64,000 nt of DNA from the NCBI GenBank assembly GCA_963618265.1, contig CAVESB010000004.1:813-64812 (forward strand), read 5' to 3'. The first letter of the stretch is position 1; each line of letters begins with the position of its first letter. Under the pieces are notes generated by a model. The model searched no databases, was not told the DNA's origin, and was given only the letters and a program-made list of their open reading frames with translations. The translations under genes were made by a program, and so were the position numbers. Shown here one piece after another: positions 6,839 through 37,195 of this stretch. Origin of the DNA: a bacterium. Its GTDB lineage: Bacteria; Chloroflexota; Anaerolineae; Anaerolineales; Anaerolineaceae.

Positions 6839-6841
6839 TGA

Positions 6842-8545: not shown

Positions 8546-8561
8546 TGTTTATCCTCACTCA

Positions 8562-15137: not shown

Positions 15138-15641
15138 ATGGCTAACAAATACAAGGCTGTACGTTGCACCCGCGGGCGTGAATGGATCTTCCGCTGTTCC
15201 ACCGGGCAGGATGTTTATGATGCTTTCCAGCAGTTTGCGATCGACAACAAGATCGAGTTTGCGAAGATCGACACTGCTTTCATGGGCGGCTTCGAGCCTG
15301 CGCGTATGCTGGTTTGGTCTCCGGATTCAACCAACCCGGAAAACTGGCATCATGAAACCGCGATGGATGTCCAGAACCTGACCATGCTCCTGAGCATCGG
15401 CGGTTTCATCCATATCCGCAAGAATGACAAGGGCGAACGTGAACCGTTCCCGGCGATTCACTACATCGTCGGCGCTGCCTGGAACGCTCCGATCTGCGGC
15501 GGACACCTGATCCCCGGCACCATCGCGAAGGGCAACCTCGAATGTTTCATCACCGAAATTCTGGACATCGAAACCTTCCTGGATGATGATGTCAATGTCG
15601 GCGCTCCCGAGACCTGGTATTACAACACCAAAGGCGAATAA
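15138..15641 (+). CDS. PPC (DUF296) domain protein
   Basis: 167 aa from ATG 15138, with GGAGGA 7 nt upstream. PPC-like pattern: RGREWIF..GQDVYDAFQQFA..IEFAKI, then GGFI, IHYIVGAA, ICGGHL. Paralog at 37216-37779. Confidence 0.65.
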   Translation: MANKYKAVRCTRGREWIFRCSTGQDVYDAFQQFAIDNKIEFAKIDTAFMGGFEPARMLVWSPDSTNPENWHHETAMDVQNLTMLLSIGGFIHIRKNDKGEREPFPAIHYIVGAAWNAPICGGHLIPGTIAKGNLECFITEILDIETFLDDDVNVGAPETWYYNTKGE

Positions 15642-15682
15642 TCGGTAATCATTCGAGTGGACTCGGAGAGAGGTATTTCATA

Positions 15683-16069
15683 ATGGGTATTGAAAAGAAA
15701 GTGATCTTGGACGGCGGCGCGATGCCGTTCTCCAAGGTCATTCGTATGGGTAAAACAGTTTACGTTTCCGGCATGGTCGGACGGCGTGATGATGACGGCA
15801 CGATTCCCGCGACGGTTGCCGAACAGACCCGTGTGACCATGGATAAGATCGCCGGTCTGCTGCGCGCCGCGGACACCGAATGGAACAACGCGCTGAAGGT
15901 GACGATTTTCGTGACCGATATGCGTTATTTCGGCGAAGTCAACGAAGTCTACAAGACATACTTCGCCGCCGGTCAGATGCCCGCCCGCTCCTGCGTGGCG
16001 GTCTCTTCCCTGCCCGATCCCGACGCGAAAGTCGAGATTGAGCTGATCGCTGAGGTTCCGAATGCCTGA
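15683..16069 (+). CDS. ridA: RidA/YjgF-family reactive enamine/imine deaminase
   Basis: 128 aa. Typical family pattern (VYVSGMVG, VTIFVTDM, ARSCVAVSSLP, VEIELIA). Confidence 0.85.
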   Translation: MGIEKKVILDGGAMPFSKVIRMGKTVYVSGMVGRRDDDGTIPATVAEQTRVTMDKIAGLLRAADTEWNNALKVTIFVTDMRYFGEVNEVYKTYFAAGQMPARSCVAVSSLPDPDAKVEIELIAEVPNA

Positions 16070-16961
16070 AAACAAACGCCGTGTATTGATTCTTGACGCA
16101 TTCACCGACACGCCTTTCCTCGGAAACCCGTGCGGTGTAGTGCCCGATGCCAACGGCATGACCGATGAGGAAATGCAGAAGGTTGCCCGCGAACTGAACA
16201 CGCCCGAAACCAGCTTTGTCTCCAAATCCGATAAAGCCGACTTCCGCGTCCGCTATTTTACCCCGCATTATGAGATCGGTTTCGCCGGTCATCCGACCAT
16301 CGCGACCTCTTTCATGCTTGGGCTTGAAGGCATGACCGCTGTTGACAAACCCGTCAATACGATCTCTCTTGAGTTCAACATCGGCGTTTTGCCGGTGGAT
16401 ATCCGAAGCGAAAACGGCAAGCCGGCTTCCGCTGTGATGACCCAGGCTCTGCCGACTTACGGCGCTTCCGTTGAGCCGGAAGAAATGGCTGCCTGCTTCA
16501 AGAACTTCACCAAGGATGACTTCGCTGACGGAATTAAACCGCAGGTCGCCGGTACCGGTACCAATTTCCTCATGGTGCCGATCAAGTCCCTGGACAAGCT
16601 CGCCGCTATTGAGATGAATCGTGATAAGCTCTGTGAGATCGTCGACCGTGTCGGCGTGCAGGGCTCCTATGTGTTTGTGCCTTACGGCTTCGCTCCCGAG
16701 ACCGGCATGCATGCCCGCCTCTGCGATCCGCGCGGCACGCAGGAAGACCCCTTCACCGGTTCCGCTGCGGGCGCTGCCGGCTGTTTTATGCTCGATCACG
16801 GCATGACCGATAAAGAGGTCATCAACATCGAGCAGGGCAACTTCATCGGCCGTCCGGGCCATGGTACGCTTTATCTGAAGCGTGAAAACGGCAAAATCAC
16901 ATCCGTCCGCCTCGGCGGTTGCGCTGTGAAAGTCTCCGACGGCATGATGCAGTTGAGCTGA
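16062..16961 (+). CDS. PhzF-family isomerase/epimerase-like protein
   Basis: 299 aa. LDAFTDTPFLGNPCGVV, MQKVARELNTPETSFV, RYFTP. The start overlaps the ridA stop by 8 nt. Confidence 0.8.
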   Translation: MPENKRRVLILDAFTDTPFLGNPCGVVPDANGMTDEEMQKVARELNTPETSFVSKSDKADFRVRYFTPHYEIGFAGHPTIATSFMLGLEGMTAVDKPVNTISLEFNIGVLPVDIRSENGKPASAVMTQALPTYGASVEPEEMAACFKNFTKDDFADGIKPQVAGTGTNFLMVPIKSLDKLAAIEMNRDKLCEIVDRVGVQGSYVFVPYGFAPETGMHARLCDPRGTQEDPFTGSAAGAAGCFMLDHGMTDKEVINIEQGNFIGRPGHGTLYLKRENGKITSVRLGGCAVKVSDGMMQLS

Positions 16962-16978
16962 ATCAGACAGGAATACCA

Positions 16979-18142
16979 ATGAAACGCAAGAATCGTGTTG
17001 AGACACTGTTGAGCGAGAGCAAGAATTTTGACGCTTTTGTTGTCAAGTCTCCTGCCGATATCGCTTATTTGATCGGAATCGTCTTCCCGTATCCCGATCA
17101 GTCGCCTTTCTCTGCGGCACTCGTTGCCTGCAAGGGAAACAATAAATACACCCTGATCATTCCGGTGGAGTGGGAATGTGTGCTTCCCAACTTCACATGG
17201 AAGGGTCTGACCAGAACTTACAGCATCAATGACGGCGATCCGGACACCGCTTTCCGCGGCGCGCTGAAATCCGTTCTTGAGAGCATGGAACCGAACGGCA
17301 AGAATATCGGCATCGACTACTCCTCCTGGACGGTTGCCGAGATTCGTTTTCTCAAGGAAACCTTTGACGGCGCAGGTCTCGTCGATATCGACCCGGAACT
17401 GAGTGCCGCCCGTGAGATCAAGAGCGCGGAAGAGATCGTCAACATTAAATTGGCTTCCCACATCGCCGACCGCGGGATGATCGGTGCTCTGAACCATGTT
17501 GAAGGGACCATCGGCACCGCCGAGTATACCCGCGCTGAGTTTCTCGAACGCATCCGCGTTCATGCCATTGAGTTCGGCGCGAACTGCACCGGTCATCTGA
17601 ACCTTTCCGAAGGCCGTTCCGGACGCAGCTGGCTGACCCCAATCCGCGATCTCTCTTTCACCGAAGACGGACACACGATCCGTGCGGATTATTCCGTCTG
17701 CATGAACGGCTGCTGGACTGTCTGCTCCCGTATGTTCTTCACCGGCAAGCCGGATCAGGCCGCTGTTGATGCTTATGCCGACAACATGATGATCAAGAAT
17801 TTCGCGGTTGACATTCTGAAGCCGGGCATCCGTGTCTCCGAGTTCTGCGAAGCCGTCCGTCTGAAGGCTGAGGAAGAATGTATCGAGCTGATGCTGGATG
17901 AAGGTCTCGGTCACGGCGTTGGCATGTCGGAACATGAGAAGCCGTTCCTGACCGCCGATAACGATGAAGTTCTGAAGCCGAATATGGTGATTGCTTTGGA
18001 CATCAAGACGATCGGCTCTGTCAACGAAATGATTCACTCGATTGATATTTATCAGCTGACCCGGGACGGCAACGTCAAGCTCAGCGATTTCCGCGAGTGG
18101 AACACCATGTATCTGATCAACGGTATGCGTTCAACGCACTAA
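16979..18142 (+). CDS. M24 (pita-bread fold) Xaa-Pro peptidase/creatinase-like hydrolase, paralog 1
   Basis: 387 aa from ATG 16979. Creatinase_N-like N-terminus (FDAFVVKSPADIAYLIG). C-terminal GLGHGVGMSEHEKP motif is present, but the EPG/RIE positions are altered (VIALDIKT, HSIDIY). Confidence 0.75.
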   Translation: MKRKNRVETLLSESKNFDAFVVKSPADIAYLIGIVFPYPDQSPFSAALVACKGNNKYTLIIPVEWECVLPNFTWKGLTRTYSINDGDPDTAFRGALKSVLESMEPNGKNIGIDYSSWTVAEIRFLKETFDGAGLVDIDPELSAAREIKSAEEIVNIKLASHIADRGMIGALNHVEGTIGTAEYTRAEFLERIRVHAIEFGANCTGHLNLSEGRSGRSWLTPIRDLSFTEDGHTIRADYSVCMNGCWTVCSRMFFTGKPDQAAVDAYADNMMIKNFAVDILKPGIRVSEFCEAVRLKAEEECIELMLDEGLGHGVGMSEHEKPFLTADNDEVLKPNMVIALDIKTIGSVNEMIHSIDIYQLTRDGNVKLSDFREWNTMYLINGMRSTH

Positions 18143-18153
18143 GGCAGGGTAGT

Positions 18154-19335
18154 ATGTCTGCGAAAAACAACGTCACAAAAATCAGTAAATTTATCCAGTC
18201 CAATCTTGAGATTGACGGTATCGTGATCACCGACCCCGCGAACCTGGCCTACGCGACCGGGTTGAACTACGAAGGTCTTTACAGCATCACGAACCTGATC
18301 GTTATCGCTTTCTTCAGCGCAAGCAAGCGTTTCCTTGCCTGCCCGAAGATCATGGCCTCTGCCTATCAGAATGCCGGCTGGGATGACAGCATCATCACCT
18401 ATGATAACTGCTCCGACCCTGAATCGGCTGCGGCGGGCATTTCCTCCGCTTTCATCACCGAGCTTTTCGGCGGCAACAGAGCCACGATCGGCTTTCTCGG
18501 CGACCGTATGCACCAGTCTCTGTTTGAAAAACTGACTGCCCGCATCAAGAGCTGCGATTTTATTGACATCAGCGAATCTTTCGCCCGTCTGCGCCAGATC
18601 AAGTCTGCTTCCGAACGCCGCATTATCGAAAAGGCTGCCGCCCTTACCGATCACGGCATCGCCGGTGCTGTTCATCACGTCTCCCGCAACGGTGCGAAGA
18701 GCGAGAAGTTCCTGACGGAGGATATCCGCGTACATTGTCTGGAACGCGGGTTGCCCGTGAACGGCTACCGCGCTGTGGCGCAGGCTGTTTCGGAAGATCA
18801 TGCGACCATTCTTTGGCCGAATGCCCCGTACTATGCAGTCGGCCGCGACGGGAATTTCTTTGAAGGCAAGTTCATCCGTCTTGAAATGACCGGCATCCTC
18901 GACGGTTACTGGTCCAATGATTCCCGCATGATGGTCAAAGGCGATATGAACCCCAGCCAGAAGACCTTCGCCGAAAAGATGACCGCGCTGCGCAAGTATG
19001 CCTGCTCTATCATCAAACCGGGCGCCGTCTGCAAGGATATCTTCTATGCCATCAACAAAAAGGCTGTCGAGATGGGCATCGTTATGGCTCCTGAATTCGG
19101 TTACGGCGCCGGCATCGGTGTCTCCCCGGTTGAGCCTCCGTACATTTCCGCCGCAGATGAAACCGTGATTGAGAAGAACATGATGATCGTTCTCTCTCTG
19201 GGCGCTCGTTATACCGCGGGCGGCGGTGAGCTTTACATCACCAGGGATACGCTGCGGATCACGGACAACGGCTGTGAAATTCTCGGCTGGTATGAGAATT
19301 GGGATTATCCGTACACCGCGGCTTACACCTTCTAA
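18154..19335 (+). CDS. M24-fold creatinase/prolidase-like protein, paralog 2 (metal-ligand motifs not recognisable)
   Basis: 393 aa from ATG 18154. Same domain layout, but the HxGH..HE.P region reads GYGAGIGVSPVEPP and the EPG position reads LSLGA. Confidence 0.7.
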   Translation: MSAKNNVTKISKFIQSNLEIDGIVITDPANLAYATGLNYEGLYSITNLIVIAFFSASKRFLACPKIMASAYQNAGWDDSIITYDNCSDPESAAAGISSAFITELFGGNRATIGFLGDRMHQSLFEKLTARIKSCDFIDISESFARLRQIKSASERRIIEKAAALTDHGIAGAVHHVSRNGAKSEKFLTEDIRVHCLERGLPVNGYRAVAQAVSEDHATILWPNAPYYAVGRDGNFFEGKFIRLEMTGILDGYWSNDSRMMVKGDMNPSQKTFAEKMTALRKYACSIIKPGAVCKDIFYAINKKAVEMGIVMAPEFGYGAGIGVSPVEPPYISAADETVIEKNMMIVLSLGARYTAGGGELYITRDTLRITDNGCEILGWYENWDYPYTAAYTF

Positions 19336-19386: not shown

Positions 19387-20967
19387 ATGAAGAATTCTAA
19401 ACTGTTCCTCCTCGTGCTTGTGTTGGTTGCTGTATTGTGCGCGAGTGTTGTCGTCTCCGCCGCTGATGACCGGGCTTCTACCCTTGTCATCGCCGCGGAT
19501 TCCGATCCCGCCGGCATTGACCCCGCCTATGATAAGGCTTACCCGGTCGGATGCGAAATCATCATCAACGTTTTTGACACCCTGGTTGCCTGGCAGGCTC
19601 CGGATTATACCGAACTCGAAGGACGTTTGGCTGAGTCCTGGAACATTTCCGAAGATGGCAAGACCTACACCTTCAACATCCGACAGGGCGTAAAATTCCA
19701 TGACGGTACCGACGTGAACGCCGAAGCTGTCATGGCAGCTCTCGAACGCACCAAGACGGAGTCCTCCTATATGCAGAAGAACTTCGGCTACATTGAAAGC
19801 ATGAACGTTCTTGATGAGTACACCCTTGAGATCAACCTGACCGAAGCTATCTCCGTCTTCCTCTCCTGGCTTGCCATGCCTGAGGCTTCCATCGTCAGCC
19901 CGGCCGCTGTCGAGACCCTGGGCGAAGATTTCTCCACGCATCCGGTCGGCTCCGGCCCGTTCATCTTTGAATCTTATGTCCCGGATACCGAAGTTGTCCT
20001 GAAGGCGAACCATGACTACTGGCGCGGCGCTCCGCAGATCGAAACCATCGTCTACCGCATCATCCCGGACGCCTCCACCCGCCGTCTCGAACTGGAAGCA
20101 GGCAATGTTGACCTGAGCCAGCAGAACGGTCAGATTTCTTCCCTGCCTGTTGAGGATATCAAGGCCTTTGAATCCAACCCGGACATCGAAGTCATCTCCG
20201 TCCCGTCCCAGATCGTCCGCGAACTGGCTTTCAACAACAACAGTGAAACCTCCCCGGTTGCCACCAACAAGAAGCTGCGCGAAGCCATGGCCCACGCGGT
20301 TGATTACGACGGCGTTGTTGAATATATCCTCGGCGGAACCGCTTCCCGCGTTTACGGTCCGATCACCTCGAACAGCTGGGCTTTCAACGAAGACATTCTG
20401 GAAGATTCCCCGTACACCTACGATCCGGAACTTGCCAAGCAGCTGCTTTCCGAAGCCGGATACGAACCGGGCGAACTGAACTTCAATATCTACACCTTCC
20501 AAGGTACCCTCTGGGGCAATGTTGCAACCTACCTGCAGGAATGTTTCGCTGAAATCGGCATCAACACCGAAGTTGTCCAGATGGAATTCCCTCCGCTGCG
20601 CGACATCATTGTCTCCGGTGATTTCGATATCTATCTCGGCGGACGTCAGCCCTGGTACAACGATCCCGAAGCGCATATCACGATCGACTATCTCTCCACC
20701 CTGGCCAACACTGCGATGACCATGCGTATGCCCGAGAACGCCGAGCTTGATCAGCTGATCCTCGATGCCCAGAAGGCTTCCTCTCAGGAAGAACGCATTG
20801 AGCTCTACGGTGAGATTCAGGAAGAGATCGTTGACGAGATCCCCGCGCTGTATCTGTTCTCCAACAACGTGATTGTCTTCAAACGCGCTGAAGTCAAGGG
20901 ACTGGTCGTCAACAGCGCTCCTCCGCTCAATGAATACTGGTCCGTCAACAAAGAAGCCGGCAACTGA
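19387..20967 (+). CDS. secreted family-5 ABC substrate-binding protein (peptide/opine/nickel class)
   Basis: 526 aa from ATG 19387, with AGGAGA 8 nt upstream. Signal peptide MKNSKLFLLVLVLVAVLCASVVVSA-ADD, followed by SBP_bac_5 motifs. Confidence 0.85.
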   Translation: MKNSKLFLLVLVLVAVLCASVVVSAADDRASTLVIAADSDPAGIDPAYDKAYPVGCEIIINVFDTLVAWQAPDYTELEGRLAESWNISEDGKTYTFNIRQGVKFHDGTDVNAEAVMAALERTKTESSYMQKNFGYIESMNVLDEYTLEINLTEAISVFLSWLAMPEASIVSPAAVETLGEDFSTHPVGSGPFIFESYVPDTEVVLKANHDYWRGAPQIETIVYRIIPDASTRRLELEAGNVDLSQQNGQISSLPVEDIKAFESNPDIEVISVPSQIVRELAFNNNSETSPVATNKKLREAMAHAVDYDGVVEYILGGTASRVYGPITSNSWAFNEDILEDSPYTYDPELAKQLLSEAGYEPGELNFNIYTFQGTLWGNVATYLQECFAEIGINTEVVQMEFPPLRDIIVSGDFDIYLGGRQPWYNDPEAHITIDYLSTLANTAMTMRMPENAELDQLILDAQKASSQEERIELYGEIQEEIVDEIPALYLFSNNVIVFKRAEVKGLVVNSAPPLNEYWSVNKEAGN

Positions 20968-21070: not shown

Positions 21071-22072
21071 ATGATAAAGTTTGCCGGAAGGCGTTTGTTA
21101 TCAAGTTTGCCGGCTTTGATCCTGGTTTTGCTGCTCGTCTTCTCCCTTGTGAGAATGATCCCCGGCGATCCGGCAGTCGCGCTGCTGGGCGCGGGCGCCA
21201 CCGATGAGCAGATTGAGTTCTTACGTGAACAGCTGAACCTCAATCAGCCGTTCCTTCAGCAGCTGGGTACCTATCTGGTTGATATTCTTCACGGCGATCT
21301 CGGCGACTCTATGCGCACGAAGCAGCCGGTCATGCAGGAACTTCTCAACCGTCTGCCCGCAACCCTTGAATTGTCAATTTTCGCGGCGATCATCGCTGTT
21401 CTCATCGGCGTACCGCTTGGTATTCTCTCAGCGAAGAAACCGAACAGCTTCATTGATCATTTCACCCGCGTTTTTTCACTGATCGGCGTTTCCGCCCCGG
21501 CTTTTTGGCTGGCGTTGATTCTTCAGCTGATTTTCTCCCTGTCCTTGGGCTGGTTCCCTGTCTCCGGGCGTCTTGACGCGACCATCCGCAGCGCGGATGC
21601 GGGTAATTTCGTAATATTCGGCAACCTCTTCAACGGTCATCTTGATTATGCGTGGTCGGGTATTAAGCACATTATTCTGCCCGCTTTTGTACTTGCGGCT
21701 TTTTACGGAGCAGTGATCGCCCGCTTCCTGCGCACCAGCATGATCGAGGTGATCCATTCCGACTATATCCGCACTGCCAAGGGCAAGGGCGTCAAAAAAG
21801 GCATTATCCTGCGCTCGCATGAGCTGCGGAACGCATTGCTTCCTGTCGTCACCATTATGGGGTTGAAATTCGCGGAAATGCTCAGCGGTTCCATTCTGAC
21901 CGAAACCGTTTTCTCCTGGCCGGGCATCGGCCGCTACATGCGTGACGCGATTTCCAACCGTGACTACCCTGTGGTTCAGGGTGCTGTCTTGATGTTCGCG
22001 CTGATCTATATGATTTCTTCCTTCATCGTTGATATCATCTACGGTCTGCTGGATCCCCGCATCCGCATGTAA
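21071..22072 (+). CDS. Opp/Dpp-type ABC permease (DppB/OppB-like)
   Basis: 333 aa, multi-TM. Signature SDYIRTAKGKGVKKGIILRSHELRNALLPVVT. Confidence 0.9.
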   Translation: MIKFAGRRLLSSLPALILVLLLVFSLVRMIPGDPAVALLGAGATDEQIEFLREQLNLNQPFLQQLGTYLVDILHGDLGDSMRTKQPVMQELLNRLPATLELSIFAAIIAVLIGVPLGILSAKKPNSFIDHFTRVFSLIGVSAPAFWLALILQLIFSLSLGWFPVSGRLDATIRSADAGNFVIFGNLFNGHLDYAWSGIKHIILPAFVLAAFYGAVIARFLRTSMIEVIHSDYIRTAKGKGVKKGIILRSHELRNALLPVVTIMGLKFAEMLSGSILTETVFSWPGIGRYMRDAISNRDYPVVQGAVLMFALIYMISSFIVDIIYGLLDPRIRM

Positions 22073-22089: not shown

Positions 22090-22980
22090 ATGCCATATAT
22101 TGAGCCCAAAGAACAAAACATCAAAAGCGGCAAACATGAAACTTGGGATAACCTCGTTTACTTCCTCAAGAAGAATCCGCTGGCTGTCCTCGGCATCGTT
22201 CTGCTGTTTATCATCATTCTCGCCTGTCTTTGCGCACCTTTGCTGACGGACTACTCCCCGACCAAGACATCCCTGCGCGAACAGCTCTCCGCGCCGAGTT
22301 CGAAACACCTCTTCGGCACGGATCAACTCGGACGCGATATCTTCGCGCGTATCCTTTACGGCGGACGGAACACGATTTTCATCGGCTTTGTTGTGATCGT
22401 GATCGCCTTCATTGTGGGTGTCGCGATCGGTATTTTCTCCGGCTTTATGGGCGGATGGATCGATAATGTCATCATGCGCGTGATCGATGCTGTGCTGTCC
22501 TTCCCGACACTGGTGCTTGCAATCGCGCTTTCCGCCGTGCTCGGTCCGAACCTGAAGAATGCGATGATCGCCGTGATCATCACCATGATCCCGCAGTTCG
22601 CGCGCATTTCCCGCGGCCTCGCGCTGAACGTTCGTGAGCTGCTCTTCATTGAATCCGCCGAAGCCCTCGGCGCCTCCACCAGGGATATCCTTTGGACGCA
22701 TGTTCTTCCCAATTGTCTGAGTTCGCTTTTCGTCCAGGCTTCCCTGAACTTTGGCTCCGCCATTCTGCAGACCGCCAGCCTCGGCTTCCTCGGTTTGGGC
22801 GCTCAGCCGCCTACGCCGGAATGGGGTGTGGATGTCTCCGCCGCCTCCGCGTACATCCGCGAATCCCCCTGGGTGGCGCTTTATCCGGGCTTCGCCATTC
22901 TGCTTACCGTATTGTCTTTCAATCTGGTCGGTGACGCGTTATCCGACTGGAACAACCCCCGCGCGAGAAAGAATAACTGA
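22090..22980 (+). CDS. Opp/Dpp-type ABC permease (DppC/OppC-like)
   Basis: 296 aa. LFGTDQLGRDIFARI and ESAEALGASTRDILWTHVLPN motifs. Confidence 0.9.
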   Translation: MPYIEPKEQNIKSGKHETWDNLVYFLKKNPLAVLGIVLLFIIILACLCAPLLTDYSPTKTSLREQLSAPSSKHLFGTDQLGRDIFARILYGGRNTIFIGFVVIVIAFIVGVAIGIFSGFMGGWIDNVIMRVIDAVLSFPTLVLAIALSAVLGPNLKNAMIAVIITMIPQFARISRGLALNVRELLFIESAEALGASTRDILWTHVLPNCLSSLFVQASLNFGSAILQTASLGFLGLGAQPPTPEWGVDVSAASAYIRESPWVALYPGFAILLTVLSFNLVGDALSDWNNPRARKNN

Positions 22981-22987
22981 TTTGGCC

Positions 22988-24388
22988 ATGAAAAATATAC
23001 GTGTCGCATTGGAAAAATGCCGTATGATGCCGCTCGGTCAGACAACCGACGGTTGGGATGTGCTGACTGTTCAAAACCTGATTTACGAACCGCTTGTCCG
23101 CGCCCGCTGCGGGCAGATGAATCCCGCGCTTGCGAAGGGTTGGATGGTATCCGACGACGGCTGCCGCTGGGTTTTCTACCTGCGTGACGATGCGAAGTTC
23201 TCCGACGGCAGCGATTGCAGCATGGAAGACGTGCGCCGTTCTTTCGAGGAAATGCGCAATGCGAAGGATTCCTTCGGTATGCCCGGCCCGTTCTCCCGCT
23301 ATCTCGCCGGTTTGGAATTCAGGGTTCTCAATGCGAAGACCCTTGAAATCACTTCTGAGAAGCCGAACGGCGATGTCGCTGACTTCCTCTCCGAAATTTT
23401 CATCCGCAAGACGGTTGCCGGGAAAGAACACTCGATCGGTACCGGATCCTATGAACTCGAGGAATTCATCCCGAATCAGAAGATCGCTCTGCGCAAAGTT
23501 GCGGGGAAGGATATTCCCGAAGCCTATGACCGCATTGATGTTCTCATCGTCCCCGATGCGAATCAGCGTTGGAACATGCTGAAGAAGGCTGAAGTTGATA
23601 TCGCGATGGATCTTGATCAGCTTGAGACGGTTCCGTTTGACGATCCCGCTGTTACCTTCCGCAAGGCGGTCAACACACTTTCCGTCATGGGTTTTTTGAA
23701 CGGATATGAAAAACCTTTCAACGATCCGAAGGCGCGGCTGGCGTTGAACTACGCCGTCAACGCAGAGCGGATAATTGAAAAGGTCCGGAAGGGTCTTGCT
23801 GTTCCTTCCGCTACCATCGTCAGCCCGTACCACTGCGGTTTCTATTCCTCCATCAAGCCGATTCCGTACGATCCCGAAAAAGCGAAGTCCCTTTTCGCCG
23901 AATGTGATATGCCGGAAACGATTGTTCTGCGCACCCCGACTTACATGCCGGAACGCGCACCCCTCGTCGCGGAATGTATCGCCGAAGACCTGCGCGCTAT
24001 CGGCATCAAGGTCGAAGTCGAAGTCAGGACCGACCGTCCCGAATACGCCCGCGAAGTCGGACGCAAAGAGACCGGGCACATCGCCATCTTCGATTCCTCC
24101 CCGCACAGTTCATACCGTGTCCTTTCCGACAAGATCAGCGGACGCGGCGGCGGCATCTGGTGGCAGGGTATCGGCATTGACGAAGTTGATGACATGATCG
24201 ACGAAGCGCACGCGACTTCCGATGTCACCATGCGCCAGTTTGCGTATTCAAAGCCGCTGCATTACCTGAACGAACATCCGTACTGGATTTACCTCTATCA
24301 TCCGATGCTGGTCTGCGGCTGTGCGGATCCTGCGATTGATGTTGAGATCACGCATGAAGGACTGCTGCACTTCCCGGGTACTTGGTAA
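22988..24388 (+). CDS. family-5 solute-binding-protein homolog without signal peptide (predicted cytoplasmic), in-operon copy
   Basis: 466 aa from ATG 22988. The track extension back to 22751 lies inside the permease gene in another frame. N-terminus MKNIRVALEKCRMMPLGQ has no leader. Shares DGCRW.FY, GTGSY, VSPYHCG, PIPYDP, W.YLYHP and FPG.W with 11899-13299. Confidence 0.7.
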   Translation: MKNIRVALEKCRMMPLGQTTDGWDVLTVQNLIYEPLVRARCGQMNPALAKGWMVSDDGCRWVFYLRDDAKFSDGSDCSMEDVRRSFEEMRNAKDSFGMPGPFSRYLAGLEFRVLNAKTLEITSEKPNGDVADFLSEIFIRKTVAGKEHSIGTGSYELEEFIPNQKIALRKVAGKDIPEAYDRIDVLIVPDANQRWNMLKKAEVDIAMDLDQLETVPFDDPAVTFRKAVNTLSVMGFLNGYEKPFNDPKARLALNYAVNAERIIEKVRKGLAVPSATIVSPYHCGFYSSIKPIPYDPEKAKSLFAECDMPETIVLRTPTYMPERAPLVAECIAEDLRAIGIKVEVEVRTDRPEYAREVGRKETGHIAIFDSSPHSSYRVLSDKISGRGGGIWWQGIGIDEVDDMIDEAHATSDVTMRQFAYSKPLHYLNEHPYWIYLYHPMLVCGCADPAIDVEITHEGLLHFPGTW

Positions 24389-24422: not shown

Positions 24423-24803
24423 ATGAAATTACAGTCTCAGATCACTTTCTTCTATTACAAGAACCTTGAGGAAGCCGCCCGCTTCTATGAAGATATTTTC
24501 CACCTTGAAATCATCCAAGACCAGTCTATGGCGAAGGTCTACAAACTTGGCAAGTCCTATTTCGGCATCGTTGACGGCGTTAAAGGCAGCCTGAAGGCGC
24601 AGGATTACAACGCCGCCATGCTCACCATTCTGGTTGATTCTGTTGAGGAGTGGTGCGCTTATCTTGATGAAAAGGGCGTGAAATGCCGCAAACCCTGCAG
24701 CTGCGGCAAGTTCGCGAAGTCCGCTTTTTATGAAGATCCCGGCGGTTATGTCATCGAGATCCAGCATTTCATGAATGAAGAAGTTCATAAGGAATTTGAA
24801 TAG
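24423..24803 (+). CDS. VOC (glyoxalase/bleomycin-resistance fold) family protein
   Basis: 126 aa. ITFFYYKNLEEAARFYEDIFHLE..., DPGGYVIEIQ. Roughly 50% identical by eye to 36815-37195. Both are 126 aa and end in KEFE. Confidence 0.7.
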   Translation: MKLQSQITFFYYKNLEEAARFYEDIFHLEIIQDQSMAKVYKLGKSYFGIVDGVKGSLKAQDYNAAMLTILVDSVEEWCAYLDEKGVKCRKPCSCGKFAKSAFYEDPGGYVIEIQHFMNEEVHKEFE

Positions 24804-26836
24804 TGAACAGCGCTTTTGAAAATATCAAGAAAGAATTTGAAGCCGATACCGCGTCGGGTTATATTCCGCTTTTGGTGACTTACACCAGGGAAGATGCTGA
24901 GATCAACGGTCTGCGTAAGGCCAAAAAGACCGACACCGTCGACCGTGAAGCGGAATATTTCAGCGCCGTTGAGGCGCTCGGGCGCAGCAAGCGCGCCATG
25001 TTCCTCGGTGAAAAGGGGATGGGGAAGAGCACCTTCCTGAAGATGCTCGCCCTCTGCATGGCTGGCGAACAGTGCGGCGATATGAAATATACCCTTGCCA
25101 AACTGACCGAACCCGTCAGCCGCACGAATTCCTGCAAAGCTCCCGAAGCGCAGGAATGGACAGCCGGTGTCTTGGACACGATCTGGGTTAATCTCGCCGA
25201 ATATCCCGAAGGCAACCTTCCCGCAGAAATTCGCGACGCACAGCTGATTTTGCTGGACGGCGTTGAATACGCTACCGCCAACGGCTGGCAGTCCATCAAA
25301 AACGAGCTTGATGAAGTCATCGCCGCGAACCCGGATGTGTATATCGCCGCCGCGTGCGAAGCCAATGTGATCAACCGTTTGCGCCCGCGTCTGCAGGGCT
25401 TTACGAATTACACCATCAATTCTCTGATCAATCCGCAAAAGAAGCAGATCGCCGAGAACTGCGGACAGACCGGTATTGCGATCCCTGAAGCATTGCAGAG
25501 CGTCCTCTGCAAGACCCAGGATTATATCCTGTGGATGCAGAACGGCAGAACGGCGGAAACCCCGTCCGACTACTTCAAGTCCATCTGCCGCGTTGATGCC
25601 GCGTATGCCGAAAAGGCAGCTTTTGATCTGCTGGTCGGCGATGTGAACATGGCTCATATTGCCTCCATGATTCGGGCGTTCAGTCACTGTGACAGCCTGA
25701 TCAAGTATCTCGCCTGCCGCTACTGCCTGAACAACAATTTCAGCGAAAACTTCGGCGTGCTCATTGACAACCTGCATTATGAAAGCTGGTCGGCTCTCAA
25801 TATGCTGAAGCTCATCATCAACGAGAACGATCCGGAGCCGTACATTGAGCATATTATTTCTCTCTGCCCGGATAGCGAACCGAATGAGGAAAACGCGCTG
25901 AAGGCACTCTTCTCCGCTGAACTTGCCTTCGGAATCCGTGAGCGCGTTGAGAACAACAGCGCGTATATTGCCGGGCTGAAAAAATGGATGAAAGCCATTG
26001 TCTGCAATGCATGGCTCTCTGTCTATGACCGCATTGAGGCCGGCAAGCGCCTTTCCTGGCTCGGTGATGACCGCGAACTTGACGCGCTGGTTGAGATCCC
26101 GGCGGGTGAGTTCACGATGGGCGATTACCTGATCGCGAATAACCAACCTGTTGAGAAGATCCACGTCGATGCCTTCAAGCTCAGCGAGTATCCCGTCACG
26201 AACGCCCGCTATGCCGAATTCATCGCCGAGACCGCTGCACCCTGGCTTTCCAACGAGGGCGATAACATTGAACGCCGCAGCTATCCCGCCATCAACCTGA
26301 CCTGGTACGAAGCCGTCAAATTCTGCGATTGGCTGACCGAAAAATGGCGTAAAGCCGGGCGTATTGCCGAAAATGAATTTGTCCGCCTGCCGACAGAAGC
26401 CGAATGGGAATACGCCGCACGCGGCAAACGCATCTCCGAACCGGGAAAGATGATCTTCCCCTGGGGCAATGAATGGGTTGATGATGCCGCCAACACCGCC
26501 GAACTCGGGCTCAATGACACCTGCCCGGTCGGTCTGTTCCCCGGCAATGTCAGCGACTTCGGTATACGCGACATGATCGGCATGGTTTGGGAGTGGAACA
26601 CTACGAACTGGGGCAATGACCCGAAGCATCCGGCTTTCCCGTATCCGTACAACGCGGAAGACGGTCGTGAAAACAGCCGCCATGCCGCCGACGATGTTCG
26701 CCGTGTAATGCGCGGCGGTTCATTCGGCAGTACCGCGGATCACGCGACGGCTTCCTATCGCGGTCACTTGGAGCCGATCGGCTTCTGGCGCGGCGACGGT
26801 TTCCGCGTTGCCGTTTCCGAGAAATCTCATGACTGA
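24803..26836 (+). CDS. STAND (NACHT-like) P-loop NTPase fused to a non-catalytic FGE-sulfatase (SUMF1-fold) domain
   Basis: 677 aa. Walker A GEKGMGKST and Walker B-like LILLDGVEY. The C-terminal roughly 235 aa carry VTNARYAEF, NLTWYEAVKFCDWL, LPTEAEWEYAARG, WEW, RGGSF and GFRV. No Cys pair follows RGGS. GTG start overlaps the VOC stop (TAGTG). The stop overlaps the next start (ATGA). Confidence 0.75.
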   Translation: MNSAFENIKKEFEADTASGYIPLLVTYTREDAEINGLRKAKKTDTVDREAEYFSAVEALGRSKRAMFLGEKGMGKSTFLKMLALCMAGEQCGDMKYTLAKLTEPVSRTNSCKAPEAQEWTAGVLDTIWVNLAEYPEGNLPAEIRDAQLILLDGVEYATANGWQSIKNELDEVIAANPDVYIAAACEANVINRLRPRLQGFTNYTINSLINPQKKQIAENCGQTGIAIPEALQSVLCKTQDYILWMQNGRTAETPSDYFKSICRVDAAYAEKAAFDLLVGDVNMAHIASMIRAFSHCDSLIKYLACRYCLNNNFSENFGVLIDNLHYESWSALNMLKLIINENDPEPYIEHIISLCPDSEPNEENALKALFSAELAFGIRERVENNSAYIAGLKKWMKAIVCNAWLSVYDRIEAGKRLSWLGDDRELDALVEIPAGEFTMGDYLIANNQPVEKIHVDAFKLSEYPVTNARYAEFIAETAAPWLSNEGDNIERRSYPAINLTWYEAVKFCDWLTEKWRKAGRIAENEFVRLPTEAEWEYAARGKRISEPGKMIFPWGNEWVDDAANTAELGLNDTCPVGLFPGNVSDFGIRDMIGMVWEWNTTNWGNDPKHPAFPYPYNAEDGRENSRHAADDVRRVMRGGSFGSTADHATASYRGHLEPIGFWRGDGFRVAVSEKSHD

Positions 26837-28055
26837 AACGCGTAAACATTCACGCAATCCGTTCTTCGAGAACTGCCCGGATCGACGCCATAACGCCGAA
26901 AGCAATAAATGGCACCGCATCCCCGAAGGATATCTGCCGCTGAGTATCGCAGATATGGACTGTATGTCACCGCTCGAAGTGCGTGATGCCTTGAGCAGGC
27001 GTGTCGAGCATAATGTCTTCGGTTACGGCAGACCGCTCCCTGAACTGCACGCGTTGATTTGCGATCACATGGGGAAGAAGTATAATTGGCAGATTTCCGA
27101 GGACAGCATCCGCTGGTCCGCGGGAGTCATTATGGGCTTCAATCAGGTCCTTGACGGTCTGGCGGAGTCCGATGACGGGATCGTCCTGCAAACCCCGAAT
27201 TATCCTCCTATTCTGGAAACGCCGGGATTCCGTCATCTGCCGATGACTTCTTCCCCGTTGGTGAAGGACGCGAGCGGGCGTTATGAGATCGACTTCGACC
27301 TTTTTGAGAAGTCGATCACCCCGCGGACGAAGTTCTTCCTTTTCAGCAATCCGCAGAACCCGACGGGGCGCGTGTTTACCCGTGAAGAGTTGGAAAAGAT
27401 CGCGGAAATCTGCCTGCGTCATCACCTCTGGATTCTCTCCGACGAGATTCATCAGGATATGATTTTCAGCGGACATCATCATATTCCGATTGCTTCGCTG
27501 GATAAAGAAGTCGAGAACATCACCGCGACATTCACTGCGGCAAGCAAAACCTATAATATCGCCGGGCTGAAATGCTCCTACGCTGTCATTCCCAACCCGG
27601 TGCTGCGCGGTGCGTTCGACCGCGGCGGCGCGGGACTGGTTGACAGTCTCAACGTGTTGGGACTGACCGCCCTGGACGCGGCTTACCGTTACGGGGACCG
27701 GTGGCTGGCTGATGTCATGACTTATCTGGAAGAGAACCGCGATTATGTTGCCGATGAAGTCGCGTCCATTGACGGGATGAGCATGTATAAACCGGAAGGT
27801 ACCTACCTCGCCTGGATCAACTGCGAAGGGCTGAACCTCGGCTGCTCCCCGTACAGGTTCTTCTATGACAACGCCCATATCGTGTTCAACGAAGGCAGCA
27901 CTTTCGGAGACGGCTGCGGGAATTACATCCGTATGAATTTCGGCACCTCGTTTGAGAGACTGCAGAAGGCTTTCGCCGATATGCGCGTCGCGCTGGATAA
28001 GCGCAATACATCGGGGGACTGCTGTCCTTCCCGTACACCGAAAGGACTTTTGTGA
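26829..28055 (+). CDS. PLP-dependent C-S beta-lyase, MalY/PatB family
   Basis: 408 aa from ATG 26829. NAESNKWHRIPEGYLPLSIADMDCMSP, SDEIHQDM and the Schiff-base motif AASKTYNIAGLK. Confidence 0.8.
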   Translation: MTETRKHSRNPFFENCPDRRHNAESNKWHRIPEGYLPLSIADMDCMSPLEVRDALSRRVEHNVFGYGRPLPELHALICDHMGKKYNWQISEDSIRWSAGVIMGFNQVLDGLAESDDGIVLQTPNYPPILETPGFRHLPMTSSPLVKDASGRYEIDFDLFEKSITPRTKFFLFSNPQNPTGRVFTREELEKIAEICLRHHLWILSDEIHQDMIFSGHHHIPIASLDKEVENITATFTAASKTYNIAGLKCSYAVIPNPVLRGAFDRGGAGLVDSLNVLGLTALDAAYRYGDRWLADVMTYLEENRDYVADEVASIDGMSMYKPEGTYLAWINCEGLNLGCSPYRFFYDNAHIVFNEGSTFGDGCGNYIRMNFGTSFERLQKAFADMRVALDKRNTSGDCCPSRTPKGLL

Positions 28056-29044
28056 TGACAAAAATTCTTGAAGTCAATAATCTGAAAACCGAGTTCAAAA
28101 CCAAGGACGGCATTGTTCACGCCGTGAACGGTGTTTCCTTCTCGCTGGATGAACGGGAGACGCTCGGCGTTGTGGGCGAATCCGGCTGCGGCAAGAGCGT
28201 CTCGATCATGTCCATGCTGCGCCTGATTGACTGCCCGCCGGGGAAAATCGTTGCCGGTGAGGTCATGTACAACGGTCAGGATCTGCTGAAATTGAAAGAA
28301 GAAGAACTCCGCCGCATCCGCGGCAACGACATTTCCGTCGTTTTTCAGGATCCGATGACCTTCTTCAACCCCGTGATGACTATCGGCGACCAGGTCGCCG
28401 AGACCTATCTGATGCATCATAAAGCCTCAAAGAAGGAAGCCCTTGAACGAGCACAGAAGTATCTTGAGCTGGTGGGCATTCCGCACGCCAAACAACGTCT
28501 TAAGAGCTACCCGCATGAGTTCTCCGGCGGTATGCGCCAGCGCGCCATGATCGCCATGGCTCTCATCAGCGAGCCGAAAATCCTGATCGCCGATGAGCCG
28601 ACAACCGCACTGGACGTTACGATTCAGGCGCAGATCGTCGAGCTGGTGAAGAAGCTGCGTGACGAGATCGGCATGTCCATCATTTGGATTACGCATGACC
28701 TCGGACTTATCGCCGGTCTTGCGGATCGCATCAACGTGATGTACGGCGGTTTGATCATCGAGACGGCGCCCGTGAAGAGCCTTTACAGCAATCCGCGGCA
28801 TCCGTACACGATCGGGCTGCTGGGTTCCCTGCCCCGCATGAACGAGAAGTCTTATTACCGCCTGACCTCCATTGACGGGATTCCGCCCGTGCTGATGACC
28901 GAGCCGGATTACTGTCCCTTCGTCAACCGCTGCAAATTCGCCGTGGAAAAGTGTAAGAACCAACGTCCGTCCCTGCAGCCGATTGATGACAACGGTCATC
29001 TCTGCGCCTGCTGGATTGATCCCGAAACCGGAAAGGAGCGTTGA
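28052..29044 (+). CDS. Opp/Dpp-type ABC ATPase (DppD/OppD-like)
   Basis: Walker A GESGCGKS, signature SGGMRQR, Walker [11 protein letters not shown]-terminal oligopeptide-type extension. Start is GTG 28052 or ATG 28055. Both overlap the lyase stop (GTGATGA). Confidence 0.9.
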
Positions 29045-29050
29045 TCGCAT

Positions 29051-30040
29051 ATGGAAAATAAAGAAGTTCTTCTGAGCGTTCAGGATCTGAAAAAGTATTT
29101 TCCCATCAAAGACGGCATCATTTTCTCACGTACCGTGGGGAATGTCCACGCTGTGGACGGCTTGACCTTTGACATTTATAAAGGTGAGACTTTGGGACTT
29201 GTCGGCGAGTCCGGCTGCGGCAAGTCCACAACGGGACGCACCATTCTGCAGCTGCAGCGTGCAACCTCCGGCAAAGTGCTCTTCAACGGACAGGATTTGA
29301 CACAGCTCACAGGGAATGACCTGCGGGCGATTCGCAAGGATTTGCAGATCATCTTCCAGGATCCTTACGCAAGCCTTGACCCGCGTATGTCCGTTGCGCA
29401 GCTGATTGGTGAACCCATGCGCATCCACAAAATCAACAGCGGTGAGGCGCGTACACAGCGGGTCAAGGAGCTGATGGAGCTCGTCGGGCTGAATCCTGCC
29501 TTCATCAACCGCTTCCCGCACGAGTTCTCCGGCGGTCAGCGTCAGCGTATCGGCATTGCCCGCGCTCTGGCACTGCAGCCGAAGATGATCGTCTGCGATG
29601 AGCCGATCTCCGCGCTGGATGTCTCCGTGCAGGCGCAGGTTGTCAACCTGCTTGAGGATCTTCAGTCTCAGATGGGACTGACCTATCTCTTCATTGCGCA
29701 TGACCTTTCCATGGTGCGCCACATCTCCAACCGCATCGGCGTGATGTACCTCGGCGTGATCGTTGAGCTTGCCGAGCGCAATGAGCTGTATGACGAGCCG
29801 CTGCATCCCTATACCCAGGCACTGCTTTCCGCCGTGCCGTATCCGGATCCCTTCGTGGAAGAATCCCGTCAGCGCATCATTCTTGAAGGCGATGTTCCCT
29901 CGCCGATCAACCCGCCCTCCGGCTGCCGTTTCCGCACACGCTGCCGATTCGCAAAAGATATCTGCGCGAAAGAGCGTCCGGAATTCAAAGAGTACAAACC
30001 CGGTCATTTTGCCGCCTGCCATTTCGCCGGGCAGCAGTAA
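29051..30040 (+). CDS. Opp/Dpp-type ABC ATPase (DppF/OppF-like)
   Basis: Walker [30 protein letters not shown]-terminal [10 protein letters not shown] motif. Confidence 0.9.
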
Positions 30041-30051
30041 GCAAAGGCATT

Positions 30052-30084
30052 ACAGCCGGCGGGGTTCACCCGCCGGCTGTTTTG
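30052..30084 (+). terminator. rho-independent terminator of the 15-kb operon
   Basis: ACAGCCGGCGG-N7-CCGCCGGCTGT followed by TTTTG. Confidence 0.85.
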
Positions 30085-30140
30085 TGAAATACGGGTTTTA
30101 CACAGCAAAAATGTGTAACAGCCGCAGCGTGAAACGGTCA

Positions 30141-36815: not shown

Positions 36816-37195
36816 TGAAGCAGTATTCCAATATCACTTTCTTCTACTATGACAACTACGATGAAGCGGTTGACTTCTATGAAAACATCTTTCATCTGGA
36901 AGTTGTCCAGGATCAGGGCGGCTGCAAACTGTACCGTCAGGGCAAAACCTTTTTCGGTATCGTCGACTCCGCTCACGGTACGCTGAAAGCTCAGCCGAAG
37001 AATGCCTGTATGCTCACCATCATCGTTGATGATGTCATGGAATGGTATGAATACCTGACCTCCAAAGGCGTCAAGGTGTACAGCGGACCGAACCATACCC
37101 CGTTCGTGGACAATGTCTTTTACGTTGATCCGGGCGGTTATATCGTTGAAACGCAGAAATTCCTGGATGAGAAGATCCAGAAAGAATTTGAATAA
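36815..37195 (+). CDS. VOC (glyoxalase fold) family protein, second copy
   Basis: 126 aa. Paralog of 24423-24803 (ITFFYYDNYDEAVDFYENIFHLE, DPGGYIVETQ, C-terminal KEFE). TAATG overlap with the synthetase gene. Confidence 0.7.
   Translation: MKQYSNITFFYYDNYDEAVDFYENIFHLEVVQDQGGCKLYRQGKTFFGIVDSAHGTLKAQPKNACMLTIIVDDVMEWYEYLTSKGVKVYSGPNHTPFVDNVFYVDPGGYIVETQKFLDEKIQKEFE

Follow-up and report, generated by a model that had tools for sequence, protein, structure and literature searches.

Bacterial proteins that join a STAND nucleoside triphosphatase (NTPase) module of the NACHT type to a formylglycine-generating enzyme fold (FGE, also written FGS) at the C-terminus have been interpreted nearly always as immune 'antigen receptors' that carry fused effectors and, in many cases, hypervariable sensors (PMC8195603; bioRxiv 10.1101/2022.07.19.500537). 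As conflict systems they are described with variable effectors or effector-associated domains (EADs), multiple copies per genome and frequent diversification by diversity-generating retroelements (DGRs) (PMC8195603; bioRxiv 10.1101/2022.07.19.500537; PMC7159879; PMC13581612). Here we analyse NTPase-FGE, a protein of this general build encoded on a 64,000-nucleotide stretch of bacterial DNA (assembly GCA_963618265.1, contig CAVESB010000004.1, positions 813 to 64,812), referred to as the window. Like the described NACHT/STAND-FGS proteins, NTPase-FGE has a NACHT-type P-loop, a helical region and a single C-terminal FGE fold, and the NTPase modules are homologous. Unlike them, it has no effector or EAD, its FGE domain is conserved rather than hypervariable, no DGR is found in the window, and there is no defence neighbourhood. 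Some long NACHT-FGS proteins are encoded as adjacent paralogs; none was seen for NTPase-FGE (copy number per genome was not checked). It also differs from other NACHT-FGS proteins in being fixed in an ATP-binding cassette (ABC) importer cassette across distant lineages.

A second point of comparison is MalT, a transcription activator of E. coli and a non-immune STAND protein tied to an ABC-importer regulon, as is proposed here for NTPase-FGE. The antagonists of MalT are MalY, MalK and Aes; MalY blocks MalT by attaching to an oligomerisation interface of the nucleotide-binding oligomerisation domain, and a loop N-terminal to the MalT nucleotide-binding domain (NBD) controls autoinhibition (PMC10427625). 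NTPase-FGE likewise has a conserved segment N-terminal to its NBD (likeness by position), and a MalY-family lyase and ABC ATPases are encoded near it in the window. However, MalT belongs to another STAND clade. NTPase-FGE has neither a LuxR-type DNA-binding domain nor a SUPR or TPR sensor, and its linkage to lyase and ATPase genes is not conserved.

The C-terminal domain shares the full-length FGE-sulfatase fold with FGE (SUMF1), EgtB, OvoA and SenA, and its C-terminal region is most similar to EgtB. A pyridoxal phosphate (PLP)-dependent C-S lyase is encoded alongside in the EgtB-EgtE and OvoA-OvoB pairs, as it is at NTPase-FGE in the window. Unlike FGE, NTPase-FGE lacks the Cu-binding Cys pair, and unlike EgtB and OvoA it lacks an N-terminal DinB-like domain with a 3-His iron site; it is also fused to an NTPase and also lies near anaerobe-type genes. 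PvdO, PorK/GldK, ToxD and TvpA have the FGE fold without FGE chemistry, and none of them is STAND-fused or linked to an ABC importer.

A preliminary description, made from the DNA alone, stated that no role was known for such a protein inside an Opp-type operon. This needs division. The NACHT/STAND-FGS fusion is known (PMC8195603; bioRxiv 10.1101/2022.07.19.500537), whereas the transporter-locked, effector-less form was not found described: no mention of a transporter-linked, solute-binding protein (SBP)-linked or vicinal oxygen chelate (VOC)-linked NACHT-FGS form was found in the searchable literature. The architecture is known; the effector-less form and its conserved non-defence genomic setting are new.

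Domain architecture and conservation of NTPase-FGE

Residues 1-425 of NTPase-FGE comprise a pre-P-loop motif, the NBD and a helical/winged-helix region; residues 426-677 form the FGE/FGS fold. The open reading frame (ORF; 24803-26836, GTG start, 677 aa), its Walker A motif (GEKGMGKST) and its Walker B motif (LILLDGVEY) are as first noted. The assignment to STAND/NACHT NTPases holds in profile searches. Pfam NACHT matches residues 66-218 with 29.7 bits against a gathering score of 26.7, which is marginal by score, and the module also matches the nSTAND3 profile. Several compact family members score under the NACHT threshold. In the AlphaFold2 (AF2) model, residues 50-420 are usable, with a confidence score (pLDDT) of ~75-90. 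The best Foldseek matches to the N-terminal ~500 residues are the NACHT modules of NLRC4 and NLRP3, ahead of DnaA and RFC, at template-modelling (TM) scores of only ~0.40-0.44 when normalised to the target. The marginal NACHT call is backed by these matches, by the scores of longer relatives with the same NTPase module, which exceed the threshold (33-47 bits), and by the score of a cassette member from Terrarubrum (30.9 bits).

K75, D152 and G153 are invariant in an alignment of eight orthologs from the clade of the window (45-99% identity), as are the acidic residue two positions after the Walker B Asp-Gly and an NRLRP segment at the position of the NACHT 'TSRP' segment. Over 15 aligned sequences of the wider family, D152 of Walker B never varies, and K75 of Walker A is kept in at least 90%.

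About 65 residues precede the P-loop. The earlier view that they hold no effector stands: there is no fused effector or effector-associated adaptor, and this region is a family-wide motif. It is not featureless, however. Residues 20-38 carry the motif YxPLLVxYTxEDxxAKGLR, ~35 residues upstream of GK[ST], which is invariant in the eight orthologs and kept throughout the family. In Alloyangia the protein opens with this motif, and the short N-terminus is a trait of the whole compact family. By position, the motif may correspond to the nucleotide-contacting pre-P-loop segment of other STAND proteins and to the 'N-loop' of MalT (PMC10427625). Profile searches with Pfam and NCBIfam found no helix-turn-helix (HTH), GerE, DinB or effector domain in NTPase-FGE, in agreement with the preliminary description and its statement that the protein has no DNA-binding output.

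The Pfam FGE-sulfatase model matches residues 426-670 at 142.4 bits (E 2.6e-41; model positions 2-254 of 255), a full-length match which bears out the FGE/SUMF1 hallmarks noted earlier. Sequence and fold matches of the domain in the PDB include human and bacterial FGE; in both sequence and fold, the C-terminal domain is closest to ToxD (7spq). NCBIfam models for GldK, SenA, EgtB, OvoA and PvdO match the FGE part only, far below their cut-offs (54-73 bits for EgtB, OvoA and SenA, against cut-offs of 360-420), and on these scores identity with any of the five was ruled out. The same libraries yielded no DinB-like or other iron-binding domain.

At the RGGS region the sequence is RGGSFGSTADHATASYRG. 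It lacks the FGE Cys pair, and the last 100 residues of the ortholog alignment hold no conserved Cys; C336/C341, the Cu-binding pair of human FGE, is taken by us to occupy the equivalent positions (cf. PDB mutant entries 2aft and 2afy). The domain had been called catalytically dead. The missing pair, and with it the lack of an intact FGE site, supports this as far as formylglycine generation is concerned; that the domain is dead for any chemistry cannot be concluded from the sequence. Its last 98 residues align best, weakly (E 0.04-0.06), with EgtB-type sulfoxide synthases; in this alignment Tyr614 falls in the region of the catalytic Tyr of EgtB. D646-H647, C508 and C574 are invariant in the window clade, and H647 is the sole invariant His. 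The residue after RGG is Cys in alphaproteobacterial members and Ser in the window clade.

Mean pairwise identity among the orthologs is 70% in the FGE domain, 51% in the NBD and 42% in the helical region, and 46% of FGE-domain columns are invariant. Between clades the FGE domain is 55-58% identical; the N-terminal half is undetectable at E 1e-20. This pattern, with the FGE domain as the most conserved region, is the opposite of that of a diversifying immune sensor. DGR diversification of this domain was considered separately and rejected, as its coding region has no repeat partner in the window.

Relatives of NTPase-FGE

An exhaustive HMMER search with residues 1-425 against 1.84 billion representatives gave three matches at E <= 1e-30 and 274 at E <= 1e-3. 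The weaker relatives include two groups. The first is compact (~590-770 aa), with a short N-terminus, P-loop, helical region and FGE-sulfatase domain; this layout is present in all ten compact relatives tested. Members of the second (900-1500 aa) have NNH2, NNH5, TPR or unannotated N-terminal regions and a C-terminal FGE-sulfatase domain; the N-terminal domains of longer NACHT-FGS clade members also include DUF4062. Long forms are found in unrelated contexts and also as adjacent paralogs. Since they match the published STAND/NACHT-FGS conflict systems, the fusion of NACHT and FGE is as such already known. A contig attributed to Thermoflexus hugenholtzii (L030) has two nearby long paralogs, 1857-4799 (+; 980 aa) and 5973-8804 (-; 943 aa); such pairing is typical of conflict-type family members.

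A scan of GTDB representatives with an ortholog profile returned, among the matches listed, distant FGE-domain proteins only and no orthologs. The compact relative P0014 and the only non-operon VOC relative, P0109, are on short contigs whose contexts say little. A possible origin of the VOC protein encoded beside NTPase-FGE as a split-off N-terminal domain of the NACHT protein was considered and rejected, as none of 150 relatives is a VOC-NACHT fusion.

A conserved importer cassette

NTPase-FGE is the last of six genes whose order and orientation are conserved: a secreted solute-binding protein of family 5 (SBP5), two permeases, a leaderless SBP5 paralog, a VOC protein and NTPase-FGE. Of seven full-length ortholog clusters (45-99% identity), six yielded genomic contexts, namely that of the window itself and P0003, P0005, P0006, P0007 and P0009, and the same neighbourhood is present in every one. 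The full order in this clade is a divergent MocR-type gene, then PCC, RidA, PhzF, two M24 peptidases, the six core genes, a PatB-type C-S lyase and zero to two ABC ATPases. In all retrieved loci of the clade the VOC and NTPase-FGE genes overlap by 1 nt.

Outside the clade, annotated plasmids and chromids (72,556 records) were searched by tblastn with a compact relative. Terrarubrum flagellatum, Allorhizobium, Neorhizobium and four strains of Rhizobium carry a full-length NTPase-FGE; that of Alloyangia pacifica is shorter. The carriers are eight replicons from three families, all of them alphaproteobacterial. Four replicons (Terrarubrum, Rhizobium sp. BG6, R. rhizoryzae and Alloyangia) were inspected gene by gene and all four have the six-gene order. 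In the other four, judged from match coordinates, the two SBPs, VOC and NTPase-FGE match in the same order on the same strand, from which the cassette is inferred. The VOC-NTPase overlap is 1 nt (TGATG) in Rhizobium sp. BG6 and 4 nt in Alloyangia; Terrarubrum is an exception, with an annotated 8-nt gap.

The secreted SBP of the window has matches of 55-57% identity in exactly the eight NTPase-FGE carriers, and the next match in the collection is at 35%. In each of the eight records this SBP gene lies ~5.4-5.8 kb upstream of NTPase-FGE on the same strand, and the SBP subtype and NTPase-FGE co-occur in eight of eight cases. VOC is 80-100% identical among the eight and then at most 43%; the leaderless SBP is 50-100% identical among them and then at most 32%. 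The leaderless protein of the window has an N-terminus homologous to those of its Rhizobium and Terrarubrum counterparts, and the secreted or leaderless status of both SBPs is conserved. Neighbours are metabolic and transport genes in all loci. The linkage to a transporter, first noted in the window, is thus conserved in distantly related bacteria and is stronger than could be known at the time. NTPase-FGE is invariably accompanied by the leaderless SBP5 and VOC, and also by the secreted SBP and the permeases. Its identity and its membership of the cassette are regarded as very probable.

On one contig (L006; ERZ21831265) many operon genes are split in two ORFs, including M24, leaderless SBP5, lyase and glutamate dehydrogenase genes; long-read indel error is more likely than pseudogenisation.

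The genes that flank the core vary. The C-S lyase occurs only in the window clade, where it overlaps the NTPase-FGE stop by 8-32 nt in every retrieved locus; it is absent from the alphaproteobacterial cassettes, in which NTPase-FGE is the last gene. A metagenome scan with the lyase profile returned nothing closer than 36%. There are two, one or no adjacent ATPase genes within the window clade, and NTPase-FGE is kept in all cases. In the P0007 lineage both ATPase genes that would follow the lyase are lost and just a 60-aa ORF is left there, and P0006 keeps one (L003 13280-13999, L005; L121 9605-10594). The importer of the ATPase-less lineage must use ATPases encoded elsewhere. Rhizobium and Alloyangia have a divergent fused GsiA-like double ATPase. 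A two-domain rhodanese gene lies directly upstream of the secreted SBP gene in Terrarubrum, Rhizobium sp. BG6 and Alloyangia.

Sister cassettes are found in Sulfitobacter alexandrii (L127; NZ_CP018080, 66.6-74.0 kb) and Microvirga ossetica (L128; NZ_CP016619, 509-516.5 kb). Within one catabolic operon they carry VOC, secreted SBP5, two permeases, ATPases and leaderless SBP5, and they differ in gene order, in having an amidohydrolase and an Asp/Glu/hydantoin racemase as partners, and in having no NTPase-FGE. Because of these cassettes, NTPase-FGE resembles an addition to a single subtype within a wider class of catabolic importers of the Dpp type. A leaderless SBP5 together with a small VOC protein appears to be an accessory pair that recurs, as yet unexplained, in Dpp-type importer operons.

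Organisation of the operon in the window

The features of the operon are listed in Table 1. The 5' part of the operon, from PCC to M24, is conserved in L001, L003, L006, L007 and L009, and the same divergent MocR-type gene is seen in L003, L004 and L007; this gene is likely the transcriptional regulator of the operon. By its TIGR04350 score (Table 1) and its PDB matches to 3t32, 6qp3 and 9k71, and to MalY (1d2f) at E 2.5e-49, the lyase is a true member of the PatB/MalY family. No signal peptide was found in the leaderless SBP5, as had been stated.

Table 1. Features of the NTPase-FGE operon. Positions refer to the window unless a locus is named. Identities are between window proteins and the cassettes of Terrarubrum, Rhizobium sp. 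BG6 and R. rhizoryzae.
Feature	Position	Strand	Evidence or remark	Identity
Divergent MocR-type regulator (likely)	13314..14750	-	GntR HTH and Aminotran_1_2 (Pfam)	
Lineage-specific 5' part: PCC-domain, RidA, PhzF-like, two M24 (creatinase/prolidase-type) peptidases	15139..19335	+	Pfam	
Secreted SBP5 (Dpp/Gsi-like), core gene 1	19387..20967	+	SBP_bac_5 304 bits, signal peptide	57%
DppB/OppB-like permease, core gene 2	21071..22072	+	BPD_transp_1	56-60% (both permeases, same order)
DppC/OppC-like permease, core gene 3	22090..22980	+	BPD_transp_1	56-60% (both permeases, same order)
Leaderless (cytoplasmic) SBP5 paralog, core gene 4	22988..24388	+	No signal peptide	39-41%
VOC/glyoxalase-fold protein, 126 aa, core gene 5	24423..24803	+	Pfam Glyoxalase	39-45%
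NTPase-FGE, core gene 6	24803..26836	+	GTG start, 677 aa	34%
PatB/MalY-family PLP-dependent cysteine-S-conjugate beta-lyase	26829..28055	+	TIGR04350 349.8 bits vs cut-off 340	
Two Opp/Dpp-type ABC ATPases	28052..29044; 29051..30040	+	ABC_tran and oligo_HPY (Pfam)	
Intrinsic terminator	30052..30090	+	12-bp GC-rich stem, then UUUUGUG	
Two-domain rhodanese-like gene (other loci)	L123 170-1030; L124 2398-3306; L126 2386-3249		Position of window-clade peptidases	

The junctions are tight. The VOC stop and the NTPase-FGE start share one base at 24803 (TAGTG), and the lyase and the first ATPase meet at GTGATGA, both as described before. The junction between NTPase-FGE and the lyase had been given as a 4-nt ATGA overlap. 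It is in fact 8 nt: the lyase ATG is at 26829 and the NTPase-FGE stop at 26834-26836 (ATGACTGA).

Consensus scans for promoters and terminators over 16-33 kb gave sites no commoner than in shuffled sequence, and none isolates NTPase-FGE; no terminator was found before 30052 within the operon. The terminator at 30052-30084 folds with a free energy (dG) of -32.1 kcal/mol (z = -5.8). This terminator was missed by the consensus scan, found by reading the sequence and confirmed by folding. An AT-rich region of 390 bp lies upstream of the first operon gene (~15.1 kb) and adjoins the divergent MocR-type gene. Given the absence of an isolating site, the terminator and this AT-rich region, the NTPase-FGE gene is placed inside one ~15-kb transcription unit (~15.1-30.1 kb), embedded in the transporter operon as the preliminary description had it. 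Rfam models detected no riboswitch or leader in the window. Downstream, an AT-rich gap of 345 bp separates the terminator from an indolepyruvate:ferredoxin oxidoreductase operon.

Four outcomes named beforehand as counting against the preliminary description were examined, and none was seen: profiles support the NTPase, the FGE site is not intact, the linkage to the transporter recurs in relatives, and nothing separates the gene from its operon.

Proposed role and alternatives

NTPase-FGE may be a compact, NLR-like member of the NACHT-FGS proteins that has been recruited to a non-immune role, as a cytoplasmic accessory dedicated to one subtype of Dpp/Gsi-like ABC importer. The probability of this reading is put at roughly 0.45. 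A sensor or switch mechanism for the protein is slightly less probable and is proposed tentatively. The fullest version, in which a ligand-gated NLR-type switch is also a dedicated, non-immune importer subunit and acts together with the cytoplasmic SBP paralog and VOC in sensing or passing on an imported sulfur-containing peptide-like compound, is more tentative again.

Under this proposal, the conserved FGE-fold domain would bind the imported compound, or else the leaderless SBP5 or VOC in ligand-loaded form. Precedents are EgtB and OvoA, in which an FGE-like fold can bind Cys or gamma-Glu-Cys. Binding would free the NACHT module from an ADP-bound resting state; nucleotide exchange and oligomerisation would then follow. 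Lacking a fused effector, NTPase-FGE would exert its output via protein-protein contacts inside the cassette, with VOC and/or the leaderless SBP5 as the likeliest partner. The effect would be to gate import, or to pass substrate to downstream enzymes. Three of the four non-transport core proteins look more like binders than enzymes (the leaderless SBP5, VOC and the FGE fold, which has neither FGE nor EgtB catalytic equipment), with a nucleotide switch as the fourth element; VOC has, by inspection only, no obvious four-ligand metal site. A sulfur-containing compound resembling a di- or tripeptide is the probable substrate: the window has the PatB lyase with RidA, Alphaproteobacteria have the rhodanese, the SBPs are GsiB/DppA-like, and EgtB and OvoA provide a precedent. 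That the sister cassettes work without NTPase-FGE is what one would expect if it is a regulatory accessory and not a core catalytic component. Most economically, NTPase-FGE can be read as a ligand-gated STAND switch that signals when the imported compound is present in the cytoplasm.

Several points weigh against it. Ligand binding, ATP turnover, oligomerisation and partner contact, that is, every mechanistic step, are inferred. NTPase-FGE has no output domain, and the 150 relatives offer no VOC-NACHT fusion in support of a VOC partnership. The operon already has a MocR-type regulator, so that a second sensor is not obviously needed. No invariant His occurs in residues 220-425 (the helical/winged-helix region) of the ortholog alignment, and the ADP-locking His contact usual in NLRs may be absent. 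The C-terminal half of the FGE domain is poorly modelled by AF2 (pLDDT <40) because the alignment is shallow. The substrate cannot be read from structures: VOC has no solved close homolog, and the solved SBPs nearest to the secreted SBP are only ~30% identical. Finally, 'distant lineages' rests on one Chloroflexota label, given by NCBI to a member of cluster P0007, on anaerobe-type gene content such as the indolepyruvate:ferredoxin oxidoreductase near the operon in the window, and on identities of at most 57%.

NTPase-FGE could alternatively be part of an enzyme or substrate-handling machine. Its FGE fold would be catalytic or substrate-presenting in sulfur chemistry on the imported compound, VOC would contribute, in trans, a metal or a second site, and gating or powering of the step would fall to the NTPase. 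In EgtB/EgtE and OvoA/OvoB an FGE-like domain acts just before a PLP C-S lyase. The weak similarity of the C-terminal 98 residues to EgtB fits such a role, as do the location of Tyr614 near the EgtB catalytic Tyr, the invariance of D646-H647, C508 and C574 in the window clade, and the conservation of the FGE domain, the highest in the protein. Both clades have sulfur enzymes beside the cassette (PatB lyase in the window clade, rhodanese in Alphaproteobacteria), and the translational coupling of VOC and NTPase suggests a stoichiometric complex. However, there is no DinB or other iron-binding domain, the Cys after RGG in alphaproteobacterial members is Ser in the window clade, and VOC appears to lack the usual four-ligand metal site. 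The cassette occurs both near anaerobe-type genes and in aerobes, which makes O2-dependent sulfoxide synthase chemistry unlikely as a shared function. Sister cassettes do without NTPase-FGE, and we know of no precedent for a STAND NTPase driving catalysis. An enzymatic role is considered unlikely.

Immune-type surveillance is less probable still. Here an NLR-like sensor would guard the peptide importer, with the leaderless SBP5 and VOC as sequestering or decoy partners. Peptide importers are a classical entry route of Trojan-horse peptide antibiotics and a possible phage target, and drug-binding resistance proteins are among those with the VOC (bleomycin-resistance) fold. The NTPase module is part of a NACHT-FGS clade in which longer members have NNH, TPR or DUF4062 N-termini, variable contexts and adjacent paralogs, and NACHT/STAND-FGS proteins are read as sensors against invaders (PMC8195603; bioRxiv 10.1101/2022.07.19.500537; PMC13581612). 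Set against this, NTPase-FGE has no effector or EAD, its presumed sensor domain is the most conserved part and not the most variable, and PADLOC matches to defence families in the window are at P-loop level only. The FGE-coding region has no DGR repeat partner in the window, although no genome-wide search for a reverse transcriptase was made.

The preliminary description had likened the locus to MalT, as a switch set by direct binding of the adjacent MalY-type lyase and MalK-type ATPases. The lyase is of the right family and overlaps the NTPase-FGE stop throughout the window clade, and the conserved pre-P-loop segment is N-terminal to the NBD, as is the controlling loop of MalT. The MalY/MalK part of the analogy nevertheless gains no support from conservation, as linkage to lyase and ATPase genes varies: the lyase is missing from all eight alphaproteobacterial cassettes, ATPase genes there are divergent or absent, and the window clade keeps NTPase-FGE even where both ATPase genes are lost. 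The NTPase is of the NACHT clade and not the MalT clade, and there is no DNA-binding output. In E. coli, malY is unlinked to malT, and adjacency was never part of the MalT system. A switch of this kind is rated very improbable, below immune surveillance.

Least probable, and strongly disfavoured, is a non-functional passenger, a decaying NLR-like gene that has lost its effector and hitch-hikes in the operon: the protein does lack the N-terminal domain of longer relatives and has a marginal NACHT score, but the short N-terminus is family-wide, the frame is unbroken in the ortholog clusters of the window clade and, among the eight alphaproteobacterial records, in seven (in Neorhizobium the match comes in 2-3 pieces), the catalytic motifs and nearly half of the FGE-domain columns are conserved, and so are the translational coupling and the strict co-occurrence with the importer subtype.

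Other features of the window

The small genes of the operon have counterparts elsewhere in the window. A second 126-aa VOC paralog (36815-37195) has an ATG that overlaps the stop of an ADP-forming acyl-CoA synthetase gene, and is followed by a second PCC-domain gene (37216-37779); the pair duplicates two small genes of the 15-30 kb operon. The 3' ends of the two VOC genes are 72% identical in DNA. A third SBP5 paralog without a signal peptide (11899-13299) adjoins the MocR-type gene, and is 32-35% identical to the rhizobial leaderless SBP.

On the minus strand, a 756-aa ORF with no Pfam match (4568-6838) abuts a UvrD/PcrA-like helicase gene (2283-4571); it may encode a divergent helicase-nuclease partner. 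A 567-aa protein (6842-8545, minus strand) has a TGS domain fused to a uridine kinase/phosphoribulokinase-family domain. There are three paralogous Liv-type (branched-chain amino acid) ABC transporter operons, at ~39.4-46.4, 48.1-53.6 and 58.5-63.4 kb, which account for most direct-repeat families in the window.

Significance

The conserved setting of NTPase-FGE suggests an undescribed housekeeping role for an NLR-like type of receptor in nutrient uptake. Several carriers are culturable type strains, and the question is thus directly testable; culturable carriers include Rhizobium rhizoryzae DSM 29514, Allorhizobium pseudoryzae, Alloyangia pacifica T6124 and Terrarubrum flagellatum 7MK25. If NTPase-FGE senses an imported compound, it would be a tractable case of the recruitment of an NLR-type switch to or from metabolism, the same question that MalT poses in another STAND clade. 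Sensing of this kind would also identify a natural ligand, small molecule or peptide, of an FGS domain, and would explain the leaderless SBP5 and small VOC protein in Dpp-type operons. If the proposed role is true, NTPase-FGE would be a rare bacterial NLR-like receptor with a metabolite rather than an invader as its ligand, and it would represent a previously undescribed form of transporter-coupled control which extends from an uncultured anaerobe clade to the Alphaproteobacteria.

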